Assembly (NCBI GenBank): GCA_964600315.1
Contig: CAZRKS010000001.1
Coordinates: forward strand, 7,078 to 71,077
Reading direction: 5' to 3'
DNA length: 64,000 bases
Source of the DNA: an uncultured Steroidobacteraceae bacterium
GTDB taxonomy: Bacteria; Pseudomonadota; Gammaproteobacteria; Steroidobacterales; Steroidobacteraceae
Part shown: positions 10,117 to 58,504 of the stretch, one piece after another
Layout: each line of letters opens with the position of its first letter
Numbering within the stretch: the first letter of the stretch is position 1
Translations under genes and position numbers: made by a program
Notes under the pieces: model-generated
Database searches by the model: none
What the model saw: only the letters and a program-made list of their open reading frames with translations
Told to the model about the DNA's origin: nothing

Positions 10117-10136
10117 CTACGTCCTAAAGGACTAGG
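10117..10136. promoter_or_regulatory. operator-like palindrome CTACGTCC-TAAA-GGACTAGG
   Basis: 12/16 arm positions match CATCGTCC-N4-GGACGATG. Lies in the 285-nt divergent region between the ipdA-like gene (start 10040) and the SDR (start 10326). Confidence 0.4.
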
Positions 10137-19410: not shown

Positions 19411-19456
19411 GGCGTTTTCCCTCTCCGGGAAACATGTCACAGCTCCCCGGCGGCCG

Positions 19457-19476
19457 CACCCGCCAAACGGACGATG
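19457..19476. promoter_or_regulatory. operator-like site CACCCGCC-AAAC-GGACGATG
   Basis: Contains the exact 13-mer CAAACGGACGATG (19464-19476), 53 nt upstream of the hsdA-like start. 13/16 to the palindrome consensus. Confidence 0.55.
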
Positions 19477-20904: not shown

Positions 20905-20963
20905 CGACGCAACCCGGAACCGCCGGCGGGCGGGCGAGCCCGCCTGCGCACGCAACGCGCTGT

Positions 20964-20983
20964 TCGCGTCCAAACGGACGATG
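20964..20983. promoter_or_regulatory. operator-like site TCGCGTCC-AAAC-GGACGATG
   Basis: Exact 13-mer at 20971-20983, in the 143-nt divergent region between the P450 (start 20904) and the OYE-type reductase (start 21048). 13/16. Confidence 0.55.
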
Positions 20984-21047
20984 ACCGGAACGTTTCCAAC
21001 ATCAGAATGCCTCCGACAACTTCGCCGCCCGCACGAGTGGAGTCTAT

Positions 21048-23966: not shown

Positions 23967-24028
23967 CGAGACGACTCCGTTCGCGGACTGGCGAGCGCCA
24001 TGATCCTCGGGCTCCGCCGGGCGGGAAG

Positions 24029-24048
24029 CATCGCACAAACGGACGATG
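24029..24048. promoter_or_regulatory. operator-like site CATCGCAC-AAAC-GGACGATG
   Basis: Exact 13-mer at 24036-24048, in the divergent region between the SDR (start 23966) and the membrane protein (start 24145). 14/16. Confidence 0.55.
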
Positions 24049-24144
24049 GCCCTCGAGCGCGGCACGCCCTAGTCTGGCGGACCATCGGGGGCGAGGCGTG
24101 CGCCGTGGCGCGTGCCACATGTGGCGTGATGTCAGACAAGAGGC

Positions 24145-24671: not shown

Positions 24672-25697
24672 ATGCGGGTGATGGTCACCGGATCGACCGG
24701 CTACGTCGGCGCCTTCAGCGTCAAGGCGCTCATCGACGCCGGCCACCGGGTCCGGTTGCTCGTGCGCGATCCCGCCAAGGCGGGAACCGTGCTTCGTGCC
24801 GTCGGGGTCAGCGGCCGGCTGGACTGCGTGCAGGGTGACATGACCGACGAAGCGTCGGTGCTGGAGGCCCTGAAGGGCTGCGACGCGGCACTGCACTGCG
24901 CGGCCGTGGTCAGCACGCACGCGTCGCGCGAGCAGGAAATGCTGCGCGCCAATCCGCAGGGTGCCGAGTTCGTGATCGGCCACGCCGTGCGCCTGGGGCT
25001 CGATCCGGTCATCCATTGCTCCAGCGTCACCGCCCTGCTGCGGCCGGGCGCCACGGTCCTCACGGCCGACATGCCGCCGGGCACGCTCACGCGCGGCTAC
25101 GCAGGTTCCAAGATCATCTGCGAGCAGTACGTGCGGACGCTGCAGAGCACGGGCGCGCCGGTCGTCATCACCTACCCCGGCAGCGTGACGGGTCCGGCTG
25201 CGTGGAGCATCCTCGGTGAAGCGACGCTGGGCGTGGCGGCGACCGTCCGCGCGGGCTTGCTGCCGACGCGCGAGGCGGCCCTTTCGATCATCGACGCGCG
25301 CGACCTCGGGGCCATACACGCCGCACTGATGACCCGCGGACGCGGCCCACGACGGATCCTGTGCGGCGGCCACTACCTGACTCCGGTGGACATCGCGCAG
25401 CGACTGCAGAATCTCACGGGGCGAAAGTTCCGCGTGCTGCCCGTGTCCGCCGCGCTGCTGCGCGGCGCTGGCCTGCTGTCCGACGCCGTTTCGCGCGCGC
25501 TGCCGCGGCTCGCCAACCCGTTCACGCACGAGGCCATGGTCTATTTCACGCAGTTACCGCCGACCGACGACTCCGCGGTGTGGCGTGAACTCGGCCTGCG
25601 TTACCGCGATGTCGAGGACACGCTGCGCGCGTCCATCCTCGCGGCGCGGGCCGCCGGTCTGCTGAGCGACGCTCAGATCGGCAAGCTGGCGTCTTGA
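24672..25697 (+). CDS. NAD-dependent epimerase/dehydratase-family (extended SDR, 3beta-HSD-like) protein
   Basis: Trimmed to ATG 24672, with GGGAGA upstream. MRVMVTGSTGYVGAF Rossmann motif and YAGSK catalytic motif. 341 aa. Confidence 0.8.
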   Translation: MRVMVTGSTGYVGAFSVKALIDAGHRVRLLVRDPAKAGTVLRAVGVSGRLDCVQGDMTDEASVLEALKGCDAALHCAAVVSTHASREQEMLRANPQGAEFVIGHAVRLGLDPVIHCSSVTALLRPGATVLTADMPPGTLTRGYAGSKIICEQYVRTLQSTGAPVVITYPGSVTGPAAWSILGEATLGVAATVRAGLLPTREAALSIIDARDLGAIHAALMTRGRGPRRILCGGHYLTPVDIAQRLQNLTGRKFRVLPVSAALLRGAGLLSDAVSRALPRLANPFTHEAMVYFTQLPPTDDSAVWRELGLRYRDVEDTLRASILAARAAGLLSDAQIGKLAS

Positions 25698-26692
25698 CGA
25701 TCCCGCCGCGGCCGTGCCGCGGCGCGCGGTTTCTGCCGGGACCGTCCCCGGGTCCGACCGGACCCTGTCGCACGCACCTTGCGCTTCCCCCCGGCCGTCG
25801 CCGCCTGCGTGGTTTCCCGCATGAATTCGCCCATCCGGGCGATTGCCGCCTTGGTCTCGGGCAGGAACGGCACCATGTGCCACACGTGCGGCACCTGGTC
25901 CCAGACCTCGACCCTGAAGTCCACGCCCTGCGCGACGGCGCGCTTCGCGACGCGACGCGTGTCGTCGAGCAGCACCTCGGTGCTGCCCACTTGCGCGAGG
26001 ACCGGCGGCAGCCCGTGAAAGTCGCCGAACACCGGCGAGACCAGCGGGTTGTCGTGCAGCGCGTCGTCGAGATAGAGCGCGTTCATCATCTTCATGCTCT
26101 TCGGCGACAGCATCGGGTCGCGACGCGCATTCGAGAACCGCGACTCGCCGCCGAAACTGAAGTCGGTGAACGGCGAGATCACGACCGCGCCGGCCGGCAT
26201 CGGGTCGCCGTCGTCCCGCAGCGCCAGCAGGGTCGACAGCGTCAGCCCGCCTCCGGCGGAGTCGCCGGCAATCACGATGCTCGCGGGGTCGGTCCCGAGG
26301 TCCAGCAGGTGGCGATAGGCCGCCAGGCAGTCCTCGAGCCCGGCCGGAAACGGGTGTTCGGGCGCCAGCCGGTAATGCACCAGCAGCGCCCGCGATCCTG
26401 CCGCCCGGCACACCCGTGCCACCATCAGCGGCACCTGCCCCGACGCCGGCAACATGAAGCCGCCGCCCGGCAGGTAGAGCAGGGTCATCGCATCGCTCGA
26501 CTCCCGCGTCCGTATCCATTCGCCGCGGAAGGCGTGAGCCGCCACCGGGGACATCTTCACTCCGGCCGGCAACCTCGGCCTGCCCCGCCCTTCGACGAAG
26601 CGCCGCGTCTCCTCGAGCGTGCTGTTGGTCATCATCCGCTTGACCGTGAAGTGCAGCACCAGGTTCAGGACCTTTGCCTGCCAGCTCGCCAT
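25673..26692 (-). CDS. alpha/beta hydrolase, HSL-family lipase/esterase with basic C-terminal tail
   Basis: 339 aa. LPGGGFM oxyanion region and GDSAGG nucleophile elbow. The last ~40 aa are Arg/Lys-rich (GGKRKVRATGSGRTRGRSRQKPRAAARPRRDR). The 3' end overlaps the convergent gene by 25 nt. Confidence 0.8.
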   Translation of the reverse strand: MASWQAKVLNLVLHFTVKRMMTNSTLEETRRFVEGRGRPRLPAGVKMSPVAAHAFRGEWIRTRESSDAMTLLYLPGGGFMLPASGQVPLMVARVCRAAGSRALLVHYRLAPEHPFPAGLEDCLAAYRHLLDLGTDPASIVIAGDSAGGGLTLSTLLALRDDGDPMPAGAVVISPFTDFSFGGESRFSNARRDPMLSPKSMKMMNALYLDDALHDNPLVSPVFGDFHGLPPVLAQVGSTEVLLDDTRRVAKRAVAQGVDFRVEVWDQVPHVWHMVPFLPETKAAIARMGEFMRETTQAATAGGKRKVRATGSGRTRGRSRQKPRAAARPRRDRQDASLPI

Positions 26693-26699
26693 CGTAACC

Positions 26700-27689
26700 T
26701 CACTTCGCCGGCGCCGTGCGCGCGGCTGACGGTCGCCGGGCCGGTCGCCTCAGCTTGCGGAAAGTCTCAAGCAGCTTCGCCGTGCGCGTCCCTGCCTGCC
26801 GGTAAGGCCGGCCCGCCGCCTTGAACGCCTCGGACCAGATATGCGCCAACTGCCGCGTGATGTCGCCTGACATCCTGGAATTGCGCGTGCAAGCCTCGCG
26901 GACCACCACGACGCGTCGGCGAAACGACTCGGCCCGACGCAGGTCGCGCATGAATTCCAGCTTGGCGCCGAGCGACTCGCGCTGGTGCCGCGACAAGCTC
27001 GCACTCGCCTTCGTCGCTCCGGCGAGCAACGCGCTGACGGCCTCGATCGCCGCGGCCGCCTCGACCCAGTTGGAGCGCGCGGCCTGCCGGCGACCGGCAT
27101 GGGGCGCAATGTCCTCGTGCCCGCGGAGCACCTCGAATTCGGCCGTGGCTTCCTCCCCGAACACCGGGTCCAGGATCGGCTTCATGTTCGCATCGATCTC
27201 GGCCCAGTCCGCGGACCTGAGCACCTGCCGGGCACGCGGGAAGGCCCGGAGTTCCTCGACGTCCATGTGCCGCCGCAGATGGCCGATATAGCGGTGTGCG
27301 CTCTTGCGCAGCGCGAAGGTGTCGGCGGTCCTGGGATCGGCACGGCAGCGGTCGATCAGCGCGAGCAGCTCGGCGCCCCGCGCCAGGATCTGCACGTGGT
27401 CCGCGAGCAAGTGCTCCACCTGCGGCGCGGAGGGCGGATCGCGCTCCACGAGCTTGCGGAAGACGAGGTCCTCCTTGGGGTGGTGGAAGCGGTCCGGGTA
27501 GTTGGTCATGTAGCGCATGACGCCGTGCATGACCTCGTAGTCGGGCTGCTTGCGCTGGTTGAGCAGGGCCACCTGCTTCTCCAGCAGCCTGAACACCCGC
27601 AGCTGGTAATGGTGCTCTTCGACCAGGGCCCGCAGGATGTCGGGCACCTCCAGAGCCTGTTTGCCACGTCCTCGTGCTGGGGTCGCCAT
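26700..27689 (-). CDS. hemerythrin-like domain protein with helical, basic C-terminal extension
   Basis: 329 aa, GAGGGAGA SD. The N-terminal ~190 aa carry His/Glu motifs typical of hemerythrin/HHE domains (EEHH, FHHPKED, LLADH, HLRRHMDVEE). The C-terminal ~140 aa match no family I recognise and end in KLRRPARRPSAARTAPAK. Confidence 0.75.
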   Translation of the reverse strand: MATPARGRGKQALEVPDILRALVEEHHYQLRVFRLLEKQVALLNQRKQPDYEVMHGVMRYMTNYPDRFHHPKEDLVFRKLVERDPPSAPQVEHLLADHVQILARGAELLALIDRCRADPRTADTFALRKSAHRYIGHLRRHMDVEELRAFPRARQVLRSADWAEIDANMKPILDPVFGEEATAEFEVLRGHEDIAPHAGRRQAARSNWVEAAAAIEAVSALLAGATKASASLSRHQRESLGAKLEFMRDLRRAESFRRRVVVVREACTRNSRMSGDITRQLAHIWSEAFKAAGRPYRQAGTRTAKLLETFRKLRRPARRPSAARTAPAK

Positions 27690-27716
27690 GGGGTCTCCCT
27701 CGTTCAGCCTCTGCCG

Positions 27717-28175
27717 TCAGCCGCGGGTGCTCCGGCGCCTGCCCGCTGGCTTCCTGTTGACCGGGCGCGTCCCCGCGGCCCGCCGTTGCGGTTCGGCGCG
27801 CGCGAGCAGGCGATCGACCTTGTCGCGCAGCTCGGCCATGTCCTCGCCGGTCGGCACGCCCAGGCGCATCAAGACCGCCATGACCCGCTCGTCGAACACG
27901 CCCTGCAATCGCCCTTGGGACGGCAAGCCCATCATTCTGCTCGGCGACCCGGTCCAGTCACTCCAGACCTTGCGGGCCACCTCGTGCAGTTCCGGCTCCA
28001 GCCTGCGGCCTTCTGCGACGAGGGTCCTGAAGTCCGCCCGGGCCCGGTTCCTGTCGGCCCCGTTGGCACGGTTCAGGGACGCCAGCCCGGCGAGGACGAC
28101 GTCGTGGGACGACTCCCGGACGCGCGAAAGCCAGGCGTCGGATTCGGCCTTCGTGCGGATCTTTCGGCTCGGCAT
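27717..28175 (-). CDS. phasin-like granule-associated protein (PhaI/PhaF N-domain type)
   Basis: 152 aa, GGAGAAATC SD. VVLAGLASLNRA...FRTLVAEGRRLE...VFDERVMAVLMRLGVPTGEDMAELRDKVDRL matches the pattern I recall for Pseudomonas PhaI/PhaF (WLAGLGAY...FDxRVxxxLxRLGxPSxxDxxxL). Basic tail. Confidence 0.7.
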   Translation of the reverse strand: MPSRKIRTKAESDAWLSRVRESSHDVVLAGLASLNRANGADRNRARADFRTLVAEGRRLEPELHEVARKVWSDWTGSPSRMMGLPSQGRLQGVFDERVMAVLMRLGVPTGEDMAELRDKVDRLLARAEPQRRAAGTRPVNRKPAGRRRSTRG

Positions 28176-28244
28176 GATTTCTCCGGTGCTCGCAGATGGG
28201 AATGCCCGATTCAGACCCTAGGCCCCGGGATTAGAGCAATCAAC

Positions 28245-28937
28245 TCAGGTACTTCCCGCAAGCTGCGGCAGGTAGCGGCGCGCCACGCGCCGGAACTCCT
28301 CCTGCTTCGGGCCTCGAAGGTAAGGGGTGACCAGCGACATCACCTGGAAGACTCCTTGCGAGAGCGCGTCGTCGTCGACCAGGGCCGGTCCGGCACCCAC
28401 CGGGCGCTGCAGGGCTCGAAAGTTCAGCCAGTAGGTCGTCAAGAGCGAGATGTTGGTCGCCAGCGCGCGCGCCTCGTCCGGCGTCGCATCGAGCGAGCCG
28501 GAGGTGACGAGCGCCCGGCAGTAGGCGCTCAGGCGGGAAACGCCGGACTCGAGACCGCGCAGGAAGCGCCGGCGCAGCACTGGATACGCCGAGCACAGTT
28601 CGCTCAGGTCGCGGTGAATGAACTGGTAGTCCTGGATCACCTCGAACGACAGGTGCAACAGCAGCCACAGGTCGTCGACAGCCTGCCGGTAGCCGGCGTC
28701 GTCGCCGGTGACCTCCGCGACGGCGCCCTGGTAGCGCTCGAACAGCGCCATGACGATGTCTTCCTTGTGGCGGAAGTGATAGTAGAGGTTGCCCGGGCTG
28801 ATCCCGGCCGCATCGGCGACGTGATTGGTGGTGACGTGCGGCACGCCTCGTTCGTTGAACAGGGCCAGCGCCGCCGCCAGGATGCGCTCGCGGGTCTGGG
28901 TCGCTCCGCGCCTCGCGGCAGGCTCGCGCGGCTTCAC
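28245..28937 (-). CDS. TetR/AcrR-family transcriptional regulator
   Basis: GTG start 28937, overlapping the WS/DGAT stop (GTGA). HTH segment RERILAAALALFNERGVPHVTTNHVADAAGISPGNLYYHF. Confidence 0.85.
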   Translation of the reverse strand: MKPREPAARRGATQTRERILAAALALFNERGVPHVTTNHVADAAGISPGNLYYHFRHKEDIVMALFERYQGAVAEVTGDDAGYRQAVDDLWLLLHLSFEVIQDYQFIHRDLSELCSAYPVLRRRFLRGLESGVSRLSAYCRALVTSGSLDATPDEARALATNISLLTTYWLNFRALQRPVGAGPALVDDDALSQGVFQVMSLVTPYLRGPKQEEFRRVARRYLPQLAGST

Positions 28938-30433
28938 GCGCGGGCCCGTCGCTTCGCTGCCTTGCGTGGTGTCGCGGCGCGGGGCGACCTGAGGCCCATG
29001 GCCTTCTCGAGGATCGCGAGTTCCTCGCCGGCATACACGGCGATCCGCTGCGGGCTCGGGCAGAGATCGGGACAGGCCAGGATGCCCATGTCCAGGCTGG
29101 CGCCGAAATTGCTCACCGTGATGTTCAGCGCCTGGCCCGCCAGCAGCAGCGAAGTCGCATACATCGCCTCGAGCCGCGCGCCGTTGACGTACTGAGTCTC
29201 GCGCGGTCCGGGCACGTTGGAGATCACGAGGTTGGCATTGAGCACCTTGTGCGCGAACGTCGTCTTCGCCGCGAGAATCTGCGGGATCATCGCCAGCTGG
29301 GTGTAATTCTGGTAAGTGTCCGCGTCGAGCTCGTGCATGAGCCCCTTGTTGGCGCGGCTCGAGGCAACGACGGCCAGCAGGCGTCGCCGGGGGTTGGCGA
29401 TTTCGGTTCCGAGCGACACCAGGATCTGGCCGACCGCATTGCCGCTGGCCGCGTCATCGGCGCGCTCGCGCGCCACCGGGCAGGCGGCGATCAGCGGCTT
29501 CTCCGGCAGTGCACGCTGCTCCTTCAGGTAGCGGCGCAACGCGCCGCCACAGACGGCCAGCAGGACCTCGTTCACCGTGGCGCCGCCGGGCACGGCCGCG
29601 CCGATCGCCTTCATGCGATCGATCGACAGCGACACCGTGCCGAGCCGCCGGCGCGCGGTCAGCGTGCCGTTCAGGATCGTCGCCGGCGCCGAATACGGAG
29701 CGATCTTGCCCCCACCGGATTTGCCGAGGCTCAGCTCGCCCACCTTCTGCAGCGCCGTGCCCCAGGAGGCGAGCGCCTGCAGGGTGCTCGTCTGCGGGAC
29801 CGGCACCTTCTTTTTGGCCGGTGCTTTCGCGGCGCGGGCGCGCAACTGCTTCAGGTCGACCGCCCAGACCGGCGGCATCCCTCGCGCCGCGGGATCGGTC
29901 GAGCGGATGTACCGGCTGAGTTCCATGCCCCGCTTGCCGTCGAACTGCGAGTGGTGGAGCTTGGTGTAGATCGCGAAGCGCCCGCCCTCCAGCCCCTCGA
30001 TCAGGTGCATCTCCCACAGCGGGCGGCTGCGGTCGAGACGGTTCACGTGCAGGCGCGCAACGAGTTCGCCGAGTTCACGCTGGCCGCCGGGACGCGGCAG
30101 GGCGTGCAGGTAGATGTGTTCGTCGACGTTCACCTTGTCGAGCTTGGCCCAGGCCCGGAACGGCTTGGGTTTGCCGCCGCCGAGCACGCGTGGCCGCAGC
30201 TTGCCCAGCAGCGACTTGCGCTTCGGCTCCGGTGCGACCGTCACGAGCTTGTAGTTGAAAGGCTCGGCCCGCACCGGCGACTTGCGCAGGTAGGCGTGCA
30301 GCTGCTGGAGGTAGTCGCGTCCCGCCCCCTCCGGCAAATCGTAGATCTCCAGTCCGCCGATGTGCGTCGGCGCCGCGACAGTGTCGGAGTCGAGGAAATA
30401 TTCGTCCTGCCGGTTCAGTCGTTGGAAGGCCAT
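28934..30433 (-). CDS. wax ester synthase/acyl-CoA:diacylglycerol acyltransferase (WS/DGAT), paralog 1
   Basis: 499 aa. Active-site HHxxxDG motif (KLHHSQFDGKRG) and N-terminal APTHIGGL typical of WS/DGAT. Basic C-terminal tail. Confidence 0.9.
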   Translation of the reverse strand: MAFQRLNRQDEYFLDSDTVAAPTHIGGLEIYDLPEGAGRDYLQQLHAYLRKSPVRAEPFNYKLVTVAPEPKRKSLLGKLRPRVLGGGKPKPFRAWAKLDKVNVDEHIYLHALPRPGGQRELGELVARLHVNRLDRSRPLWEMHLIEGLEGGRFAIYTKLHHSQFDGKRGMELSRYIRSTDPAARGMPPVWAVDLKQLRARAAKAPAKKKVPVPQTSTLQALASWGTALQKVGELSLGKSGGGKIAPYSAPATILNGTLTARRRLGTVSLSIDRMKAIGAAVPGGATVNEVLLAVCGGALRRYLKEQRALPEKPLIAACPVARERADDAASGNAVGQILVSLGTEIANPRRRLLAVVASSRANKGLMHELDADTYQNYTQLAMIPQILAAKTTFAHKVLNANLVISNVPGPRETQYVNGARLEAMYATSLLLAGQALNITVSNFGASLDMGILACPDLCPSPQRIAVYAGEELAILEKAMGLRSPRAATPRKAAKRRARA

Positions 30434-30445
30434 GGCCTCGCCCCC

Positions 30446-31846
30446 CTATGGCTTCGAAACACGTGCATGGGCACCGCGCGCCGCGCGACCCCTCGCGCGC
30501 GGCTTCAGCTCGAGCGCCGCCTCCAGCTCACGCAGCGCGACCGGCAGCTGCAGCGCCAGGTACTGCACGCTCGGCAGCGTGTCGGGGCAGGCGACGAGGC
30601 CGAAATGCAGGTGCTTGCGATAGCTCAGCACCGTGATGTTGAGCCGCTGGTCCCCCGACAACACTGACAGCGGGTACATGCCGTCGACCTCGGCGCCCCG
30701 GAAATACAGTCGTTGCATCGGTCCCGGCACGTTGGAGATCGTTAGGTTGGTGAACGCCGCCCGATCGGGATCCGTGTTCTCGCGCTTCGGGACCATCATC
30801 ATGAGCTGCATGCCGACGGAATTGACCGCCTTGTGCAGCGACATGGGCATGACCTGGAATTCCTCTTTGGCCGCGCGCATTTCCTTGCGAATGGCCAGCA
30901 ATCGCTTGCGGGGGTCGCGCTGCTGCGTCGCGATCGCGGTGTGGATGCTGGCGACGGAACTGCCGTGCGTGTCGCCCGCGGGGCGCGGCAGCGCGACCGG
31001 CACCGTGGCGAGCAGGCTGTCCTTCGGGATGCGGTCACATTTCGCGAGGTAAGCGCGCAGCGCACCGCTGCAGACCGCCAGCACGACGTCGTTGACCGTG
31101 GCGTTCGCCGCACGGGCGACGGCCTTGATGCGCGGCAGGCTCAAGTCCTGCGTGGCGAGGCGCCGCCGGCTGGTGCTGCTCCCGTTCAGCACGCACCGGG
31201 GTCCGCGCGGGATCAGCGGCACGTCGCGCGAACGCGCCCGCGATCCGCCGACGTTGCGCAGCAACTCCGCGAAGAACCGGCGCCAGTCCTCGTCGGCCGA
31301 CTGCGTCGCCCGGACGGTCACGCGGGCCCTGCGCGGTGTCGACCACGGCGGCAGACTCGGGCTGCGCGGCGACTCGCCGAGGGCGCCCGCGACCTTGTTG
31401 ATCAGCCCGATCCCGTCGCCCAGGGAGTGGTGGACCTTGAGGTACAGCGCGAAACGGTCGGGCCGCAGGCCTTCGATCAGCGTGCACTCCCACAGCGGGC
31501 GCGAACGCTCGAGGGGCAGCGAATGCAGGCGCGAGATCGCAAGCCCCAACTCGCGCTGGCCGCCCGGCCACGGCAACGCCTCGTGGCGCAGGTGGTACTC
31601 GAGGTCGACGTGTTCGGCCGCCTCCAGCGCGGGCGAGTACTTGCCGAGGCCCCGCTTCTCCACGAGCCGCAGGTTGAACGGCTCGCTGTCCACGGCGCAG
31701 CGCGCGAGCTTCGCGTGCAGTTCCTGCATGAAGTCGGGCGACGCCCCCTTCGGCAGCCTGCAGGTCATCAGGAGCCCGATGTGCATCGGGGCCTCGGGGG
31801 TTTCGAGTCGCAGGAACAAGGCGTCCTGCGTGCTGAGCTTGACCAT
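30446..31846 (-). CDS. WS/DGAT acyltransferase, paralog 2
   Basis: Trimmed to ATG 31846, with AGGAGAA upstream (MVKLSTQDALFLRLETPEAPMHIG). HHSLGDG motif. 466 aa. Confidence 0.9.
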   Translation of the reverse strand: MVKLSTQDALFLRLETPEAPMHIGLLMTCRLPKGASPDFMQELHAKLARCAVDSEPFNLRLVEKRGLGKYSPALEAAEHVDLEYHLRHEALPWPGGQRELGLAISRLHSLPLERSRPLWECTLIEGLRPDRFALYLKVHHSLGDGIGLINKVAGALGESPRSPSLPPWSTPRRARVTVRATQSADEDWRRFFAELLRNVGGSRARSRDVPLIPRGPRCVLNGSSTSRRRLATQDLSLPRIKAVARAANATVNDVVLAVCSGALRAYLAKCDRIPKDSLLATVPVALPRPAGDTHGSSVASIHTAIATQQRDPRKRLLAIRKEMRAAKEEFQVMPMSLHKAVNSVGMQLMMMVPKRENTDPDRAAFTNLTISNVPGPMQRLYFRGAEVDGMYPLSVLSGDQRLNITVLSYRKHLHFGLVACPDTLPSVQYLALQLPVALRELEAALELKPRARGRAARGAHARVSKP

Positions 31847-31984
31847 CGGCTCTGATTCTCCTGCAGGGGCCGGTTCTGCCGCCGGCACTCGTGAGCGATG
31901 ACACGGCCGGGCCCGACCGTCGAGTCGGCGTTCCGGCCTCGCCAGCGTCGCAGGCAGGACTGCTGCGCTCATCCCCCGTTCAGA

Positions 31985-33469
31985 CTACCGGCGCCGCGCA
32001 GCGCCGCGTCCGGGGCTGGTCGGCCGGGCGGCCCGGCGCGAGCCTGAGCCGGTCGTACGCCGGCCGGCGAGCGCCCGCTCGAGTTCGTCGAGTGACTCCA
32101 GGATGAGCCCGCCGACCCGCCGCGGATCCGGGAGCAGATCCGGACAGACCAGCACGGCCACGTCGAGCATGTTCCGGCGGCTGATCACGGTGATGTTCAT
32201 CGCCTGTCCCGGCACGAGCAGCGACATCGGGTAGTCCGCCTCGATCAGGGCCCCGTTCGAATAGCGCTTCTCGCGCAGGCCCACGACGTTCGAGATCACG
32301 ACGTTGTGGGCGTGCGCCTTCTCGGCCCGGCCGAAAATCGTGAACAGGATGTAGGGCAGGCCGATCAGGCCCATGTAGATGTTGAGCGCCGTGGGCGACG
32401 GCAGGCCGTGGATCAGTTCCTTCGCGTGCTGGCTCGACGAGCGCACGGCCTCGAAGCGCCGCACGGGATCCTTGAGATGCGTCGCGAGCGAAACCTGGCC
32501 GGACGCAATCGCATTGCCGCCGGCCTGGCCGCCGGCCCGGGTCACGGCGACGATCATGTTGGCGACCAGCGCCTCCTTCGGCAACGCGTGCCGCCCGAGC
32601 AGATAGCGGCGGAGCGCGGCGCCGCAGATGGCCATCACGACGTCGTTGATCGTCGCGCCCTGGGACCTGGCCAGCCGCTTGAGGCGCGACAGCGGGAGCC
32701 GCGTGACACCGATCTCGCGCTGGGCCGTGACCTTGCCATTGAGGATGCTGTCGGGTGCGCGGTAGATCGGCACCAGGCCGCCGTCGGTCGGATGCCGATA
32801 CGAGTCGATCACCCGGCCGAACGCGGTGCCGAGTTCGCTCACGACCTCGACGCCGTCGCTCACGCCGGCGCGGCCGCGTTCCAGCCAGCCGCGCGCGGGT
32901 TCCGCGCTCCGCCCGCCCCGCTTCGTCGCCGCCGCTTCGCTCCTCTCCTCCATGGTCACGCCCCAGAACGGCAGCAGCCCGCGTTCGTCGGGGTCCGCGC
33001 TGGTGGTCTCGCGGTAGAGCCGCATGCCCCACTGGCCATCGACGTACGCGTGATGGATGCGCGAGAAGGTTGCGTACCGGTTGCCAGGGAGGCCCTCGAT
33101 CAGGTGGTGCTCCCACAGCGGCCGCGAGCGGTCGAGCAGCCCGGAGTTGAGGCGCGAAACGAGTTCGAACAGTTCGTTCTCCGTCCCCGGCCACGGCAAC
33201 GCGTGATGGAAGATGTGCCTGCGAAGGTCGACCGCGTCGAGGACCTTCCAGCCAGGGATACCCGGCAGCGGCCCGCTCGCCGTGTACAGGTAGTTGAAAG
33301 GCGCGCCGTTCGCAGGGATGTTCATCAGCTGATCGCGCAGCTTGCGCACGTAGTCGCGACCCGCGCCGGGCGGCTTGCGCAGGATCTGCACGCCGGCGAC
33401 GTGCATCGGCGTCTCGGGCGACTCCATCGTCAGCATCATGATGTCCATCGGATTCATCGACTTCAGCAT
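31985..33469 (-). CDS. WS/DGAT acyltransferase, paralog 3
   Basis: Trimmed to ATG 33469 (MLKSMNPMDIMMLTMESPETPMHVAG). HHAYVDG motif. 494 aa. Close paralog of the next gene. Confidence 0.9.
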   Translation of the reverse strand: MLKSMNPMDIMMLTMESPETPMHVAGVQILRKPPGAGRDYVRKLRDQLMNIPANGAPFNYLYTASGPLPGIPGWKVLDAVDLRRHIFHHALPWPGTENELFELVSRLNSGLLDRSRPLWEHHLIEGLPGNRYATFSRIHHAYVDGQWGMRLYRETTSADPDERGLLPFWGVTMEERSEAAATKRGGRSAEPARGWLERGRAGVSDGVEVVSELGTAFGRVIDSYRHPTDGGLVPIYRAPDSILNGKVTAQREIGVTRLPLSRLKRLARSQGATINDVVMAICGAALRRYLLGRHALPKEALVANMIVAVTRAGGQAGGNAIASGQVSLATHLKDPVRRFEAVRSSSQHAKELIHGLPSPTALNIYMGLIGLPYILFTIFGRAEKAHAHNVVISNVVGLREKRYSNGALIEADYPMSLLVPGQAMNITVISRRNMLDVAVLVCPDLLPDPRRVGGLILESLDELERALAGRRTTGSGSRRAARPTSPGRGAARRR

Positions 33470-33530
33470 CGCTGCAAACCTCCCGCTGCCTGACCTCTTC
33501 CCCGGCTCCTCGCAACACCGGCACCCGATC

Positions 33531-34946
33531 CTACCGCTTCCTGGCGAGCGCCCGTTCGAGCTCGTCCAGCGATTCCGCGATGGCCTCGCCGACACGCTGC
33601 GGACCGGGGACCACGCTCGGGCAGACGAGCACGGCCACGTCGAGCATGTTCGCGCGGCTGATGACCGTGATGTTCATCGCCTGGCCCGGCACGAGCAGCG
33701 ACATCGGGTAGTCGGACTCGACCAGCGCCCCGTTGACGTAGCGCCTTTCGCGAAGGCCGATGAGGTTGGAGATGACGACGTTCTGGGCCCGCGCCCTGTC
33801 GGCCCGGCCCAGGATCGTGTAGAGCGCGAACGGCACGCCGGTCAGGCCCATATAGAGGTTGAGCGCCGTCGGCGAGGCCATGCCGTGGATGTGGTCCTTC
33901 GCGCGCCGGCTCGACGAGCGCACGGCCTCGAAACGCTTGACCGGGTCCCTGAGGTGGGTCGCCAGCGACACCTGCGCGGCCGCAACGGCGTTGCCGGCGC
34001 TCGCGCCCTGCTGACGTGCGACGGCCACGATCATGCCCGCGATCAGCGCCTGCTTGGGCAGGGCGTCGCGCTCCAGCAGGTAGCGCCGCAGGCCGCCGCC
34101 GCAGATGGCCAGCACGACGTCGTTGACCGTCGCACCGTGCGCCCGGGCCAGCCGCTTGATGCGCGCCAGCTCGAATTGCGTGACGCCGATCTCGCGTCGC
34201 GCGGTGACCTTGCTGTTCAGGATGCAGAGCGGCGCCTGGTAGATCGGCACGAGGCCGCCGTCCGTCGGATGCCGGCGCGCTTCGAACAGGTGGCCGAATG
34301 CGGCGCCCAGTTCGGTCACGGCCTCGACGCCTTGATCGAGGCCGGCGCGGCCCCGTTCCAGCCAGCCCGGCGTGGGCGGCCCGCCGCGCGGGGAAGCCCT
34401 CTTCGGCGTCGCAGCGGGCTTCTCGTGGATTTCCACGGCCCAGTACGGCAGCAGCCCGCGGACGTTCGGGTCCGGACTGGTGGTCGCCTCGTGCAGCTTC
34501 ATGCCCCACTGGCCGTCGATCAGCGCGTGGTGCACGCGCATGAACGTGGCATAGCGCTGCCCCGCGAGACCCTCGATCAGGTGGTATTCCCAGAGGGGCC
34601 GCGAGCGATCGAGGTGACTCGAGTTGAGGCGCGAGACGAGCTCGAACAGTTCCGCCTGCGTCCCTGGCCAGGGCAGCGCGTGGTGGAAGACGTGCTCCCG
34701 GAGGTCGACCTCGTCCAGCACTTGCCACGCGGGCACGCCCGGCACCAGCCCGCTGGCGGCGTACCGATAGTTGAAGGGGGCGGCGCGCGCCGGGATGCGC
34801 AGCAGCTGGTCGCGCAGCTTGCGCACGTAATCGCGGCCTGCGCCGCGGGGTTTGCGCAGGATTTGCACGCCACCGATGTGCATCGGCGTTTCCGGTGACT
34901 CCATCGCCAGCAGCATGGCGTCCAGCAGGTTCATCGATTTCAGCAT
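33531..34946 (-). CDS. WS/DGAT acyltransferase, paralog 4
   Basis: 471 aa (MLKSMNLLDAMLLAMESPETPMHIGG). HHALIDG motif. First gene of the minus-strand string. Confidence 0.9.
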   Translation of the reverse strand: MLKSMNLLDAMLLAMESPETPMHIGGVQILRKPRGAGRDYVRKLRDQLLRIPARAAPFNYRYAASGLVPGVPAWQVLDEVDLREHVFHHALPWPGTQAELFELVSRLNSSHLDRSRPLWEYHLIEGLAGQRYATFMRVHHALIDGQWGMKLHEATTSPDPNVRGLLPYWAVEIHEKPAATPKRASPRGGPPTPGWLERGRAGLDQGVEAVTELGAAFGHLFEARRHPTDGGLVPIYQAPLCILNSKVTARREIGVTQFELARIKRLARAHGATVNDVVLAICGGGLRRYLLERDALPKQALIAGMIVAVARQQGASAGNAVAAAQVSLATHLRDPVKRFEAVRSSSRRAKDHIHGMASPTALNLYMGLTGVPFALYTILGRADRARAQNVVISNLIGLRERRYVNGALVESDYPMSLLVPGQAMNITVISRANMLDVAVLVCPSVVPGPQRVGEAIAESLDELERALARKR

Positions 34947-35057
34947 CGCCGCAAACTCAACCGCCCGGCACTCTCACCCGTTCTCGTAGCACCTGTTCGA
35001 GCGGGGGTCCATACGCGGCCGCCACGAGCCCCATGAGCGCGCCGGCTTGCGTCCGGG

Positions 35058-35077
35058 CGTCGTCCGAAGGGACGATG
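35058..35077. promoter_or_regulatory. near-perfect palindromic operator CGTCGTCC-GAAG-GGACGATG
   Basis: 15/16 arm positions are symmetric. Lies in the 171-nt divergent region between WS/DGAT paralog 4 (start 34946) and the SDR (start 35118). Confidence 0.6.
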
Positions 35078-35117
35078 TCCGGGCCGGCGGCGGCACTCAA
35101 CCTTTGGACTCGCTGCA

Positions 35118-37675: not shown

Positions 37676-37687
37676 CATCGTCCAAAC
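37676..37687. promoter_or_regulatory. isolated half-site CATCGTCC-AAAC
   Basis: Perfect left arm plus AAAC spacer, but no recognisable right arm. Lies in the divergent region between the acyl-CoA synthetase (37573) and the FAR (37842). Confidence 0.2.
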
Positions 37688-37841
37688 AGGGTAGCGGAGG
37701 GCGTCGGCCGGCGTGTCCCGCACCGCAGCACGACCGGGCCGACGGGCGCCTGCGGCTAGTCCGGTTGAGTGATTTGTCCGTCGACGGGGGAAACTAATGT
37801 GCGTTACTCGAAGATCCAAGCGACAGGCAGGGGAGACAATC

Positions 37842-39833: not shown

Positions 39834-41140
39834 TGGCCGCCGCGCTGCAACTGCTGCGCTCGCTGCTCGCGGGCGTCGTCCTGGCGCTCACCGCCGGCGG
39901 CGCGGCCGGCCAGGCACTGCCGGTTCCCGCGGCGGCTCCGGCGATCGATCCTGCACGGCTGATGCAGGGCTTTCCGCCGCCGCCGGAGTACCGCGTCTAC
40001 ATCGGCAACTGGCAGCGCTGGCCGCAGAAGATCTGGTCGTTCCAGCACACGCGTGAGCTGTTCCCGACGCGCCGGCTGCAGCCCGTGGGTCCGGTGTGGA
40101 AGTTGCCTGCAGCGCGCCGGTCGCTCGACCAGCTGCAGGTCGGGACCGCGGAAGCGCCGCAGACCTGGCCGCAGATGCTCGAAGCCTCGCACACGGATGC
40201 CGTGCTCGTGCTCCACAAGGGGCGCATCGTGGAGGAGCGGTACTTGAACGGCATGCGGCCCGAGACGCCGCACCTGATGTTCTCGGCCACCAAGTCCATG
40301 GTGGGGCTGATGGCCGCAGTGCTGGTCGCCGAGGGCAAGCTCGACCCCGCGGCGCGCGTAGGCACGCTGATTCCAGAACTCGCGGCGAGCGCCTGGGGTG
40401 AGGCGACGGTCCGCCAGGTGCTGGACATGACCGACGCGGTGCGCTTCACCGAGGTCTACACGGACCCGAAGTCGGACATCTTCGCCTACGTCGGCGCGAT
40501 GGGCTGGGCACCCGAACTCAGGAATCCCGCCAACCCGACCGGCATCCGCGACATGCTGGCGACCCTCACCACGCAGACCGGCGAGCCGCGCGGGACGGCG
40601 TTTCACTATCACTCGCCGGCCACGGATGTGGCCTGCTGGCTCGCATCGCGTGCGGCCGGTCAGTCGCTCACCGATTGGCTGCAGCAGCGTCTCTGGAGCC
40701 AGCTCGGCATGGAGTTCGACGGCAACATCATGCTCGACCCGGTCGGTACCGAGGTCGCATTCGCCGGGATGAGCGCCAGCCTGCGCGACCTCGGCCGTCT
40801 CGGCCAGATGCTGCTGCAGCACGGCCGGGTCCACGGCCGGCAGTTCATCCCGGCGAGCGTCGTCGACGAACTGATCCGCGGCGGCGACGTGCGTGCCTTC
40901 GAATCCTCGGGCATGCCGTTCCGGGCCGGCTGGTCGTACCGGTCGCAGTGGTGGGTCAACCCCAACCCGCCGCGGTCCTTTGCGGCGATGGGTGCGTTCG
41001 GTCAGCGGCTGTACGTCTTCCCGGACGCGGACATGGTGGTCGTGATGTTCGGCAGCCACCCCGAGCCGATCGCGGCGCTGATCGACCCGCAGCAACGGCG
41101 CGCGTTCGCGGCCTTGATCGACGCGCTCGGCGAGCGCTGA
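39833..41140 (+). CDS. exported beta-lactamase/esterase-family serine hydrolase
   Basis: ATG overlaps the FAR stop (TGATG). Signal-peptide-like MAAALQLLRSLLAGVVLALTAGGAAGQA. SxxK motif in FSATKSMVG. 435 aa. Confidence 0.8.
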   Translation: MAAALQLLRSLLAGVVLALTAGGAAGQALPVPAAAPAIDPARLMQGFPPPPEYRVYIGNWQRWPQKIWSFQHTRELFPTRRLQPVGPVWKLPAARRSLDQLQVGTAEAPQTWPQMLEASHTDAVLVLHKGRIVEERYLNGMRPETPHLMFSATKSMVGLMAAVLVAEGKLDPAARVGTLIPELAASAWGEATVRQVLDMTDAVRFTEVYTDPKSDIFAYVGAMGWAPELRNPANPTGIRDMLATLTTQTGEPRGTAFHYHSPATDVACWLASRAAGQSLTDWLQQRLWSQLGMEFDGNIMLDPVGTEVAFAGMSASLRDLGRLGQMLLQHGRVHGRQFIPASVVDELIRGGDVRAFESSGMPFRAGWSYRSQWWVNPNPPRSFAAMGAFGQRLYVFPDADMVVVMFGSHPEPIAALIDPQQRRAFAALIDALGER

Positions 41141-41220
41141 TCGAGCGCTCGGCGCGCCTGAGCCGAGGGCCGCCCGAGCGGCCTGGACGTTTCAGTGATT
41201 CGACAGTGGAGGAACAGCTC

Positions 41221-42759
41221 GTGCCCCTGCACCGATTCTTCGCAGCTGCGGTGATGGCCGCCGCGATGGCACCTGTCGCCGCGTCGCACGCCGCGCCGGC
41301 GGCGCAGCGCCCGAACATCCTCGTGATCATGTCCGACGACGTCGGCCACACCAACGTGGGCCTCTACAGCCACGGCATGATGGTGCCCACGCCGAACATC
41401 GACCGCATCGGTCGCGAAGGCCTGCTGTTCACCGACCATTACGCGGAGCCGAGCTGCACGCCGGGCCGCGCGGCGTTCGTCACGGGCCAGATGCCGATCC
41501 GGACCGGCCTGACGACGGTGGGCCTGCCGGGCTCGACCATCGGCCTCGACTCGCGCGACCCCACGCTCGCGGAGGTCCTGAAACCCCTCGGCTACCGCAC
41601 CGGACAGTTCGGCAAGAACCACCTCGGCGACCGCAACAGCCATCTGCCGACGGTGCACGGCTTCGACGTCTTCTACGGCAACCTCTACCACCTCAACACC
41701 GAGGAGGAGCCCGAGCTCGCGATGTGGCCGAAGGACGCGGGCTTCGACCAGCGCTACCGTCCGCGCGGCGTGCTCGACTGCGTGGCCACCGACGTGGACG
41801 ACCCGACAGAGGACGCGCGCTTCGGCCGCGTGGGCCGGCAGCGCTGCAAGGACACCGGGCCGCTCACGGCGAAGCGCATGGAGACGATCGACGACGACCT
41901 CGAGGCTCGCACCGAGAAATTCATCACGGAGTCCGTCCGTGCGAAGCAGCCCTTCTTCGTATGGTTCAACTCGACGCGCATGCACATCTACACGCACCTG
42001 AAGCCCGAGTCGCGCCACCTCGCCGATTCGATCTCCTCGGAGTTCGACACCTTCGGCAGCGGCATGATGGAGCACGACGGGCATGTCGGCCGCCTGCTCG
42101 CGCTGCTCGACCAACTGCAGATCGCCGACGACACCATCGTGATCTACACCAGCGACAACGGGCCGATGAGCGCGTGGTGGCCGGATGGCGGCACCGGGCC
42201 GTTCCGCGGACAGAAGGCCACGACCTGGGAAGGCGGAGTGCGCGTGCCGATGCTGCTGCGCTGGCCCGGACACGTGCCGGCCGGCAGCGTGTCGAACGGC
42301 ATCCAGACACATTACGACCTGTTCACGACGCTGGCGTCCGCCGCAGGCGCGCCCGGCATCGCGGACCGGCTGCGCGAATCGAACAAGGTGCACATCGACG
42401 GCGTCGACAACCTGCAGCACTGGCTCGGCAAGTCGCCGTCGCAGCGCAACTCGCTGATCTACTACAACGAAAGCGAGATCACGGCGGTACGCATCGGGCC
42501 CTGGAAGTCGCATATCAAGACGCGCGAAGGTTTCTTCGACTTCCTGCAGCCGAGCACGCTCGTGTTCAACCTGCGCATGGACCCGTTCGAGCAGCACGGT
42601 GGCCAGAAGTCGAACGACCTCGCCATGCGCATGGGCGTGGCGTTCGGCGGCCAGGTGTACGACCTGATGGGCGCGCACCTGGCCTCACTCAAGCAGTTTC
42701 CCCCGCGACAGAAAGGCGGCAGCCTGATGGTCAAGACGAAACAGGACGCGGCGCAGTGA
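41221..42759 (+). CDS. exported formylglycine-type (aryl)sulfatase
   Basis: Trimmed to GTG 41221, with GGAGGAA upstream. Signal peptide, then ILVIMSDDVG, the CxPxR motif (SCTPGRAAFVTGQ) and GKNHLGD. 512 aa. Confidence 0.85.
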   Translation: MPLHRFFAAAVMAAAMAPVAASHAAPAAQRPNILVIMSDDVGHTNVGLYSHGMMVPTPNIDRIGREGLLFTDHYAEPSCTPGRAAFVTGQMPIRTGLTTVGLPGSTIGLDSRDPTLAEVLKPLGYRTGQFGKNHLGDRNSHLPTVHGFDVFYGNLYHLNTEEEPELAMWPKDAGFDQRYRPRGVLDCVATDVDDPTEDARFGRVGRQRCKDTGPLTAKRMETIDDDLEARTEKFITESVRAKQPFFVWFNSTRMHIYTHLKPESRHLADSISSEFDTFGSGMMEHDGHVGRLLALLDQLQIADDTIVIYTSDNGPMSAWWPDGGTGPFRGQKATTWEGGVRVPMLLRWPGHVPAGSVSNGIQTHYDLFTTLASAAGAPGIADRLRESNKVHIDGVDNLQHWLGKSPSQRNSLIYYNESEITAVRIGPWKSHIKTREGFFDFLQPSTLVFNLRMDPFEQHGGQKSNDLAMRMGVAFGGQVYDLMGAHLASLKQFPPRQKGGSLMVKTKQDAAQ

Positions 42760-43550
42760 GCGACCGCCTGCAGGGTCGCAGCGCCGTCGTCACCGGCGGC
42801 GCGCTCGGCATCGGGCGCGGCATCGCGCGCGCCTTCGCCCGCGAAGGGGCTTCCGTGCTGGTGTCCGACGTCAACGAGGAAGCCGGCCTCGCGACGGTGC
42901 GGCAGCTGCGCGACGAATTCGGCGCGCGCGCGGAGTTCACGCGCACCGACGTCAGCGTCAAGGCCGACGTGCTGGCCATGGTGGCGACGGCGCGCGAGCA
43001 TTTCGGGACGGTCGACATCCTGGTCAACAATGCCTGGGCCGGCAGCGGCCTGAAGCGGGTCGAGCACAAGAGCGACGAGGACTTCGAGCGGTCGCTGCGC
43101 ATCGGCCTGATGGCGGCGCTGTGGTCGATGCAGGCGGTCTTCCCGCTCATGCGCGAGCGCCGGCAGGGCCGCATCATCAACCTCGCCTCGCTCAACGGCG
43201 TGAACGCGCACGTAGGCACCGTCGACTACAACGCCGCCAAGGAAGCGCTGCGCGCGCTCACCCGGACGGCGGCGCGCGAGTGGGCTCCGCACCAGATCTG
43301 CTGCAACGTCATTTGCCCGGGCGCACGAACCGAGGCGTTCGACCGCTTCGCCGCACACAGCCCCGAGAATGCACGCGCCATCACGGCTGCCAATCCGATG
43401 GGCCGCTTGGGCGACCCGGAGGGCGACATCGGGCCGGTGGCGGTATTCCTCGCGAGCGACGACTGCCGCTACCTGACCGGCAACACGCTGTTCGTCGACG
43501 GCGGCAGCCACATCAACGGGGTGGCCTGGGCACCGCAGCTCCCGGACTGA
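42756..43550 (+). CDS. short-chain dehydrogenase/reductase
   Basis: GTG 42756 overlaps the sulfatase stop (GTGA). SAVVTGGALGIGRGIA, NNAW and YNAAK motifs. 264 aa. Confidence 0.85.
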   Translation: MSDRLQGRSAVVTGGALGIGRGIARAFAREGASVLVSDVNEEAGLATVRQLRDEFGARAEFTRTDVSVKADVLAMVATAREHFGTVDILVNNAWAGSGLKRVEHKSDEDFERSLRIGLMAALWSMQAVFPLMRERRQGRIINLASLNGVNAHVGTVDYNAAKEALRALTRTAAREWAPHQICCNVICPGARTEAFDRFAAHSPENARAITAANPMGRLGDPEGDIGPVAVFLASDDCRYLTGNTLFVDGGSHINGVAWAPQLPD

Positions 43551-43564
43551 CCGGCGTCGCGGCG

Positions 43565-46383: not shown

Positions 46384-46414
46384 GCGCCCCGGTGTGCGGG
46401 CACGCACGGAAGCG

Positions 46415-47176: not shown

Positions 47177-47279
47177 GGTCAGTTCATCCGTATCGTGATT
47201 GGCGATCGCGCTGCCGCTGATGCGGCCGGCCAGTTGTCGGCGGCTCGAGCTTCAGTCTCGCAGCGCGGGTCTGGCCACG

Positions 47280-47299
47280 CCTCGTCCGAACGGACAACC
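47280..47299. promoter_or_regulatory. operator-like site CCTCGTCC-GAAC-GGACAACC
   Basis: 12/16. Sits between the TetR stop (47322) and the SDR start (47176), directly abutting a hairpin. Confidence 0.45.
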
Positions 47300-47320
47300 G
47301 GGTGCCCGATTCGGGCACCC
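47300..47320 (-). terminator. GC-rich hairpin GGGTGCCCG-ATT-CGGGCACCC immediately after the TetR stop
   Basis: Perfect 9-bp stem with a 3-nt loop, 1 nt downstream of the stop codon at 47322-47324. No U-tract follows, so intrinsic-terminator function is uncertain. Confidence 0.35.
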
Positions 47321-47321
47321 G

Positions 47322-51836: not shown

Positions 51837-51890
51837 GGCGCAATTCTCCTTCCGGCCGACCGATCCGTGCCCCGCCCCGACGCGCTCCGC

Positions 51891-52913: not shown

Positions 52914-52955
52914 CGCCTCGCTCCCCTGGGTGCCCCGGCCAGATCGCCGACGTGA

Positions 52956-57452: not shown

Positions 57453-57456
57453 GGCA

Positions 57457-58494: not shown

Positions 58495-58504
58495 GCGGGG
58501 CGCC

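Follow-up and report, generated by a model that had tools for sequence, protein, structure and literature searches.

Does a single DNA site tie the breakdown of steroid-type compounds to the storage of neutral lipids in an uncultured bacterium? The question is raised by a 20-bp inverted repeat, here called site A, in a stretch of 64,000 nucleotides from an uncultured Steroidobacteraceae bacterium (assembly GCA_964600315.1, contig CAZRKS010000001.1, positions 7,078 to 71,077). This whole stretch, which has 70% G+C, is referred to below as the window. Site A lies between a gene for a short-chain dehydrogenase/reductase (SDR) and a string of eight genes that begins with a WS/DGAT gene, and a sequence-only reading of the window had taken it for the full operator of a dimeric factor controlling both the lipid genes and steroid-type catabolic genes. 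The comparisons described here suggest that site A very probably is a genuine site for a transcription factor of a steroid-type regulon and has the geometry of an activator site, and that the lipid block plausibly belongs to the same regulon as the steroid-type genes.

A conserved dyad between the SDR and WS/DGAT genes

On the plus strand, positions 35058-35077 read CGTCGTCCGAAGGGACGATG, that is CGTCGTCC-GAAG-GGACGATG. Seven of the eight arm pairs are complementary, which bears out the near-perfect 8-4-8 palindrome described earlier, and a single mismatch separates the site from the perfect palindrome CATCGTCC-N4-GGACGATG, which is also the consensus of the site family. The right arm was correctly recognized as part of a 13-mer, CAAACGGACGATG, which ends in GGACGATG and of which the window holds three exact copies (19464-76, 20971-83 and 24036-48). 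The site occupies part of a 183-nt spacer between the first WS/DGAT gene (33531-34946, minus strand) and the SDR gene (plus strand), both assigned by Pfam. The position given for it between these genes holds, and only the SDR start needs correction: 35118 is the first in-frame GTG, and the GTG at 35130 is the likelier start, because a protein of 278 residues is called on identical metagenome contigs and a GGAG Shine-Dalgarno sequence lies 6 nt upstream. Searches of NCBIfam and PDB for the substrate of this SDR returned generic SDR matches only. On the other side, the eight genes of the string are tightly packed and may form one operon, with site A upstream of it.

The pairing of the arms is no proof in itself, because 8-4-8 near-palindromes are common in the window: inverted repeats with at least seven of eight pairs number 98 (6 of them intergenic), compared with 63 +/- 9 in shuffled sequences, and the 8-mer GGACGATG alone is at chance level, with 5 occurrences and 4.35 expected. 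Palindromy was therefore rejected as evidence. The sequence-specific pattern, unlike bare pairing, is over-represented. Matches to the 20-mer consensus with at most three mismatches number six where 0.57 are expected, a count reached in none of 100 shuffles; CATCGTCCNTTNG with at most one mismatch is found five times (1.03 expected); and four of the five GTCC-N4-GGAC cores are intergenic, in a window of which intergenic DNA makes up only about 4-5% according to the gene map made here. The copies have only a core of 13-20 bp in common and their flanks are unrelated, which excludes a dispersed repeat of the REP/MITE type. What settles that the site is real is its conservation across genomes.

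Scanning genomes and metagenomes with the WS/DGAT protein brought up related loci of the same synteny. In every one of them that retains the SDR/WS-DGAT junction, representing at least seven distinct spacers, the 20-mer is kept as CATCGTCCCTTYGGACGAMG, while the flanks are otherwise unalignable and the neighbouring proteins are just 57-87% identical. In two of these loci the palindrome is separated from the first WS/DGAT gene by a short conserved open reading frame or its remnant (MTTDASAG...; L018:1090-1200 and L042:1802-1910), which stretches the spacer to 250-400 nt. More distant WS/DGAT orthologues, from 'Rubrivivax' metagenome-assembled genomes (MAGs; 55% identity), were set aside, having neither the SDR neighbour nor the motif. 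They are preceded by another conserved palindrome, TCACG-GTTT-CGTGA (L004:4715-4740 and L005:235-260; also in L024 and L025), which may be the site of a different regulator acting on this enzyme family.

Recurrence in steroid-type clusters and activator-type spacing

Orthologues of the SDR (70-89% identity) are found in steroid/bile-acid-type clusters of cultured Burkholderiales and in Steroidobacteraceae. The Burkholderiales clusters contain a 708-residue OYE, SDRs, an aldehyde dehydrogenase, an acyl-CoA synthetase, a KshA-like Rieske oxygenase, an amidase and an MFS transporter, and the strong copies of the motif in these clusters are all intergenic, as are ten of the ten matches with at most two mismatches in loci L043-L056 (Table 1). 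According to a recent preprint, Alicycliphilus denitrificans, one of the hosts, has the closest match outside Comamonas to the tesB-tesR steroid cluster (10.64898/2026.09.18.752586). The orthologue of site A in Caldimonas and Paraburkholderia has an aldehyde dehydrogenase gene on one side and the operon with the SDR orthologue on the other; in Caldimonas this operon consists of an MFS gene followed by the SDR gene. Site A thus appears to be ancestrally the site of the SDR gene, and the simplest reading of its present setting would be promoter capture, in which the WS/DGAT operon of the Steroidobacteraceae clade came to lie opposite a steroid-regulon site that was already there. The array has gained a canonical outward -10 box in this clade. 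An arrangement not seen in the window is found at L056:15147-15206, where two copies 40 bp apart, each with its own outward -10, share the divergent spacer between an MMPL/BNR operon and a thiolase-like/ChsH2-like operon.

When the window was scanned with a symmetrised weight matrix made from ten Burkholderiales sites only, site A ranked first with 24.4 bits, compared with maxima in shuffled sequences that averaged 11.7 and had their 95th percentile at 16.4. Ranks two to five went to sites 3, 2, 5 and 1, and all of the top five are intergenic. The 13-mer sites, which had been regarded as kin of site A on their sequence within the window, are thus among its next-best matches for a matrix from other genomes.

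The position of the site relative to possible promoters was read from the 62 flanks of 31 aligned sites, a -10-like hexamer being defined as NAnnnT. Such a hexamer lies 20 nt outside the motif edge in 36 of the 62 flanks and 21 nt outside it in another 9 (45 of 62 together), over a background of about one or two at any other offset; many are full TAnnnT hexamers, and divergent spacers carry them on both sides. No -35-like hexamer fits at these promoters in a manual reading of the 62 flanks, and a consensus scanner found no sigma-70 promoter in the spacer of site A. With the hexamer spanning -12 to -7, the centre of the site would fall at about -42.5. Facing the SDR gene, the orthologous loci have CAACCT, GACCAT, AACCAT or CAACGT at the same offset as in the window; facing the WS/DGAT gene, a TAnnnT hexamer at offset 20-21 is found in six orthologous loci (TAGCTT, TACGGT, TACCCT, TACCGT, TACCCT and TATCGT). 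The centre near -42.5, the missing -35 box and the strict 20-nt spacing point to a class II activator site common to back-to-back promoters rather than to a classical repressor operator, which would not need such phasing. Both features of lux-box-like class II sites, a dyad of 18-20 bp and an inferred centre near -42.5 in place of the -35, are present. The proposal that the 13-mer is the strong half of a dimer-binding operator therefore survives as to the half-site, given the perfect palindromes in Caldimonas, Alicycliphilus and Comamonas-like contigs, and gives way as to the word operator, the geometry being that of an activator site.

Table 1. Positions of site A, the related sites and the associated genes in the window and in other genomes (positions outside the window are preceded by the locus number).
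Feature	Position	Strand	Sequence	Context and evidence
Site A, 20-bp dyad common to the putative divergent SDR and WS/DGAT promoters	35058..35077	.	CATCGTCCCTTCGGACGACG (towards WS/DGAT)	sequence, matrix, conservation
SDR gene, 278 aa	35130..35966	+		Pfam; orthologues in steroid-type clusters
-10-like hexamer towards SDR	35098..35103	+	CAACCT	20 nt from motif edge; flank reading
Eight-gene string: four WS/DGAT, unknown ORF, phasin, hemerythrin-domain protein, Abhydrolase_3 esterase/lipase	25673..34946	-		Pfam; synteny conserved
Site 1 (has 13-mer)	19457..19476	.	CACCCGCC-AAAC-GGACGATG	intergenic; matrix 15-16.7 bits
Site 2 (has 13-mer)	20964..20983	.	TCGCGTCC-AAAC-GGACGATG	matrix, -10 spacing, orthologous sites
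Site 3 (has 13-mer)	24029..24048	.	CATCGCAC-AAAC-GGACGATG	matrix, conservation, -10 spacing
Site 4, weaker	47280..47299	.	CCTCGTCC-GAAC-GGACAACC	matrix 11.5-12.8 bits, the level of the shuffle maximum
Site 5	10117..10136	.	CTACGTCC-TAAA-GGACTAGG	matrix; orthologue in another MAG
Site 6, one half-degenerate arm	37676..37695	.	CATCGTCC-AAAC-AGGGTAGC	conservation, -10 spacing
Site A, related loci	L018:991, L026:100, L029:3823, L042:1702		same as window
Site A, related loci	L003/L019		CATCGTCCCTTTGGACGAAG
Site A, related locus	L027:611		CATCGTCCCTTTGGACGACG
Caldimonas tepidiphila	L052:10450		CATCGTCCGTGTGGACGATG (perfect)	just downstream of tesR-type gene
Caldimonas tepidiphila	L052:4586		CGTCGTCCGAAGGGACGATG (identical to site A)	ahead of MFS-SDR operon
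Caldimonas tepidiphila	L052:3054		CATCGTGCGAACGGACGATG	intergenic
Paraburkholderia sacchari	L051:1200, 5881, 8562		near-perfect	one before SDR orthologue, one before OYE orthologue
Alicycliphilus denitrificans	L053:7362		CATCGTCCTACCGGACGATG (perfect)	head of SDR-MaoC-thiolase-tesR operon
Comamonas-like	L054:7365		CATCGTCCTTGCGGACGATG (perfect)	head of SDR-MaoC-thiolase-tesR operon
Orthologues of window site 2	L053:13381, L054:13656		CATCGTCCATTTGGACGCAT	OYE/ETF divergent spacer
Site in L055	L055:7370		perfect	operon position as in L053 and L054
Site in L056	L056:7384		near-perfect	operon position as in L053 and L054; further copies at 15147 and 15187
Steroidobacteraceae MAG, three sites	L048:631, 9949, 12474			intergenic

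The proposed activator and its rivals

The explanation that we find moderately probable as a whole is that of a TesR/TeiR-type activator co-inducing the SDR and WS/DGAT promoters from the dyad. A dimeric transcription factor would bind 35058-35077 and take the place of the -35 of two back-to-back promoters, its site being centred at about -42.5 of each; one promoter would serve the SDR gene (35130, plus strand) and the other, judged from the orthologues, the WS/DGAT-phasin-hemerythrin-lipase string on the minus strand. The site family would mark steroid/bile-acid-type catabolic genes across Beta- and Gammaproteobacteria, among them those for OYE/BaiCD-like flavoenzymes, SDRs, acyl-CoA synthetase, CoA-transferase, KshA-like oxygenase and aldehyde dehydrogenase and the SDR-MaoC-thiolase-tesR operon. 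The factor itself would be a LuxR-family class II activator encoded outside the window and answering steroid-derived signals, and with the WS/DGAT array opposite the ancestral SDR site, steroid catabolism and the synthesis of neutral lipid (wax ester, triacylglycerol, possibly steryl ester) would be induced together.

No regulator gene adjoins site A in any of the related loci compared. The sole regulator gene that recurs in site-bearing clusters (L052-L056) encodes a protein of about 390 residues with a PAS-like region and a GerE (LuxR-type) helix-turn-helix (HTH) domain, and it is assigned to the TesR/TeiR type on the strength of 66-79% identity among such proteins across Comamonadaceae and relatives. 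In four lineages (L053-L056) the operon that ends with this tesR has a perfect or near-perfect site at its head, an order from which positive autoregulation would result, and in Caldimonas a perfect site follows tesR. For Comamonas testosteroni, reviews name TesR/TeiR as the LuxR-type positive regulator needed to induce most steroid-degradation genes (PMC6678751; PMC8700777). Whether the factor is TesR/TeiR-like is nonetheless an almost evenly balanced question, if anything tilted slightly against.

Several points weigh against the explanation. The matrix is not independent, since its training sites were first located with the window-derived consensus; the existence of those sites, their intergenic restriction, their gene contexts and their -10 spacing are independent of this circularity. 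The transcription starts are putative, being placed from the hexamers. On the WS/DGAT side of site A the window departs from its orthologues (comparison of 35037-35057): at offset 20 it has CTCATG, without the A that is otherwise kept at position 2, and WS/DGAT control in this strain may be weaker or come from another promoter, the original one having perhaps decayed or been replaced. The shared regulon of the sequence-only reading is thus upheld as far as the site is kept at all SDR/WS-DGAT junctions, with TAnnnT in six of seven, and is qualified by the hexamer of the window; support for the predicted control of the lipid string is good in the clade and somewhat weaker in this strain, and co-regulation is what these promoters would entail. 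As to the factor, TeiR is reported, as cited in PMC6678751, to be a membrane-associated kinase (Gohler 2008), a literature search found no described TesR/TeiR DNA site, and tblastn found no tesR homologue in the 64-kb window or in the fetched WS/DGAT loci. Nor does the co-localisation with tesR single out TesR, since it is expected for any regulator of a steroid cluster.

These last points lend themselves to the rival that survives best, according to which the regulon and its activator geometry are real and the factor is some other dimeric regulator encoded elsewhere, for example one of the CRP/FNR family or of the GntR/FadR type. Class II sites of CRP/FNR, centred at -41.5, fit as well as lux boxes do, -41.5 and -42.5 being indistinguishable from hexamers; the 5-4-5 core CGTCC-N4-GGACG is compatible with CRP/FNR, and a GT...AC core with a GntR/FadR-type protein. 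The lack of tesR in the window and the WS/DGAT loci and the description of TeiR as a kinase favour it further, as do two loci with three sites apiece and no regulator gene, L051 of Paraburkholderia (12.8 kb) and L048 of the Steroidobacteraceae (20.9 kb). However, none of the site-bearing loci examined showed a CRP/FNR or GntR gene, whereas tesR, alone among regulator genes, is consistently inside the site-bearing clusters L052-L056, in the operon headed by the best sites, and we consider another regulator rather unlikely.

A repressor operator, at which a TetR-family protein would occlude the -35 region, is improbable. The candidate would be the TetR gene at 47322-48050, which stands immediately upstream of site 4; the motif covers the -35 position, where a repressor could use it as well, a 76%-identical TetR orthologue in a Rhodocyclales MAG is preceded by AATCGTCCGAAAAAACGATT with a TAGACT -10 22 nt away, and in Actinobacteria steroid genes are controlled by the TetR-family repressors KstR and KstR2 (PMC6678751). 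Yet the orthologue P0002 in L043, which is 79% identical and has the very same recognition helix, lacks any such site over 20 kb and is preceded by a different palindrome, GGTCAATTGAC, and so is the Sterolibacterium orthologue. The TetR gene of the window has no site upstream, and site 4, downstream of it, is the weakest of all; moreover, the strict 20-nt spacing and the missing -35 box are typical of activator-dependent promoters and are not required of a repressor. With orthologue contexts in conflict, the TetR protein was rejected as the factor. The actinobacterial KstR-type framing was rejected too: the genome nearest to the window is that of a Steroidobacteraceae MAG, in which the WS/DGAT protein is 68% identical, and KstR-type logic is inapplicable because the organism is a gammaproteobacterium and not an actinobacterium.

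The palindromes of the GGTCAATTGAC type upstream of TetR orthologues, at L043:9955-9985 (a JGI contig) and L047:9850-9880 (Sterolibacterium), are probably the operator of these proteins themselves, and a search for this palindrome in the window gave chance-level matches only. In the Rhodocyclales MAG (L045/L046:9928-9947), AATCGTCCGAAAAAACGATT lies between the SDR and TetR genes and may be a lower-GC version of the motif; the gene set there is anaerobic-steroid-like (MMPL/sterol-sensing, OYE, NMO, sulfatase, radical SAM).

A chance inverted repeat or RNA hairpin (5'-untranslated-region structure or terminator) without a protein partner is scarcely credible, for although 8-4-8 near-palindromes are frequent in DNA of this G+C content and an extended 13-bp stem on the plus strand has G-T mismatches only, it is the sequence and not the pairing that is conserved (the L003 variant has a T-T mismatch without compensatory change), the same sequence stands at non-homologous promoters of distant genomes, site A has no T-run, no terminator call and no Rfam match, and its place upstream of the inferred -10 boxes means that it would not be transcribed.

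The TesR/TeiR-type activator, which remains the preferred explanation, can be set beside known systems. The lux box of LuxR and the tra box of TraR are dyads of 18-20 bp near -42.5 that replace the -35 and are bound by a dimer with GerE/LuxR-type HTH domains, and a LuxR-type regulator gene is often controlled by its own site. The motif described here resembles them in geometry and in the presence of tesR in operons headed by the best sites. It differs from the lux box in its unrelated sequence, in a candidate regulator with a PAS-like middle region instead of an acyl-homoserine-lactone-binding domain, in that one site often serves two divergent promoters, and in the many sites with one degenerate arm. 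FadR of Escherichia coli, which activates fabA from a site near -40, offers a parallel in that one site family joins degradative and lipid-synthesis genes; however, it belongs to the GntR family, has a 17-bp site and represses catabolism while activating synthesis, whereas here both sets would apparently be activated, and its lipid side is membrane fatty-acid synthesis, compared with storage lipid (WS/DGAT) here. The KstR motif is TnnAACnnGTTnnA and the KstR2 motif AnCAAGnnCTTGnT; these operators differ from the present sites in motif, in phylum and in being repressor sites that overlap core promoters, in contrast to the activator geometry seen here. They are alike in being palindromic, spread over a steroid catabolic regulon and often situated in divergent spacers (PMC6678751). 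The TesR/TeiR regulon of C. testosteroni is alike in its gene families and clusters, with an scd-type operon ending in tesR, an OYE-type flavoenzyme, SDRs and acyl-CoA dehydrogenases, in its positive regulation (PMC6678751) and in the motif copies next to tesR homologues; it differs in that the organism of the window belongs to the Steroidobacteraceae and has anaerobic-type (C25-dehydrogenase-like) genes, and in that the regulon here would reach a WS/DGAT-phasin operon.

Further sites, neighbouring genes and significance

Around site A the order is the FAR gene (+), the acyl-CoA synthetase gene (-), the SDR gene (+), site A and the eight-gene WS/DGAT string (-). Next are epimerase and membrane protein genes (+), site 3, an SDR gene (-), the gene of an OYE/FadH-like, BaiCD-like flavoenzyme (+) and site 2, after which come a P450 gene (-), site 1 and an SDR gene followed by acyl-CoA dehydrogenase genes (-).

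At site 1, the -10-like hexamer CATGTT (19431-19436, minus) is directed at the SDR gene 18637-19410 and the downstream acyl-CoA dehydrogenase genes. At site 2, CAGAAT (21003-21008, plus; offset 19) is directed at the OYE/FadH-like gene 21048-23171, and orthologous sites stand ahead of the same OYE gene next to tesR in the Alicycliphilus and Comamonas-like contigs and also in Paraburkholderia. Among the steroid-type targets, the P450 named earlier accordingly gives way to the OYE/FadH-like gene, site 2 having no properly spaced -10 towards the P450. The start of this P450 is ambiguous (20914-21003 in the window): ATG 21003 with GGAGG, TTG 20973 or an ATG near 20914, and the longest reading frame would span site 2. 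Site 3 is bidirectional, with TAGTCT (24070-24075, plus) towards the membrane protein and epimerase genes and GAGGAT (24003-24008, minus) towards the SDR gene 23193-23966, and is kept in L019, L026, L027, L028 and L029. Two other accounts of the 13-mer were rejected: conservation of a coding sequence or start codon, because its three copies are in different frames or upstream of the likeliest starts and have unrelated flanks, and an ECF-sigma or sigma-54 promoter formed with its flanks, because the spacings do not fit on manual reading.

Site 5 lies between a CoA-transferase subunit gene (9165-10040, minus) and an SDR gene (10209-11135, plus), and its orthologue in the Steroidobacteraceae MAG L048 (position 631) is CTACGTCCTAAAGGACTAGA in an unchanged gene context. 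Site 6 lies where the acyl-CoA synthetase gene (start 37573, minus) and the FAR gene (start GTG 37843, plus) diverge, with GAACAT at offset 21 directed at the synthetase gene; it is kept ahead of the synthetase orthologue in L003 (reverse complement CATCGTCCAAACAGAGTACC), L029:1271 and Paraburkholderia L051:8562. Site 4 is found between the TetR gene (47322-48050, minus) and the SDR gene 46415-47176, with GAGACT (47254-47259, minus) at offset 20. A G+C-rich hairpin at 47299-47322, GGGTGCCCG-ATT-CGGGCACCC, directly follows the stop codon of the TetR gene; it is terminator-like, lacks a T-run, and separates that gene from site 4 and the SDR gene.

Elsewhere in the window, the region 39836-47176 encodes a beta-lactamase-fold protein, a sulfatase, an SDR and two DUF1254/DUF1214 proteins, a set that also accompanies TetR orthologues elsewhere and hints at the processing of steroid sulfates or conjugates. 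Two operons for ethylbenzene-dehydrogenase-like molybdoenzymes follow at 48316-53600 and 56907-61465, comprising Molybdopterin alpha, Fer4 beta and EB_dh gamma subunits and a NarJ-like chaperone, and resemble those of anaerobic steroid C25 dehydrogenases. The window scan found no CATCGTCC-N4-GGACGATG site near either operon. A second TetR gene (55740-56432) and a small winged-HTH gene (53818-54276) adjoin them, and both proteins were set aside as factors, being encoded beside the molybdoenzyme operons with no sites nearby.

The regulation of proteobacterial steroid degradation is poorly defined at the DNA level, and reviews that name TesR/TeiR as the key positive regulator give no binding site and treat it in part as a kinase. 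Tentatively, CATCGTCC-N4-GGACGATG might be the missing 'TesR box', with TesR acting as a conventional class II activator and its switch having captured the WS/DGAT-phasin operon, so that storage lipids would be programmed within steroid catabolism. The 20-bp element, sharply defined and widely conserved, offers a directly testable cis-target. It also enables regulon prediction for steroid-degrading bacteria from their genomes and MAGs, of interest for hormones in wastewater, for bile acids and for the anaerobic degradation of cholesterol, and it offers a compact steroid-responsive promoter part for biosensors. The earlier statement that such a coupling is undescribed stands, a literature search having found no account of the motif or of a link between steroids and storage lipids. 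The wiring of the four WS/DGAT genes, the phasin and the lipase to this element suggests that in uncultivated Steroidobacteraceae the storage of neutral lipids is tied to steroid catabolism in a programmed way, and, if this is true, the storage lipids may be steryl or wax esters made from steroid-derived or co-metabolised acyl units.

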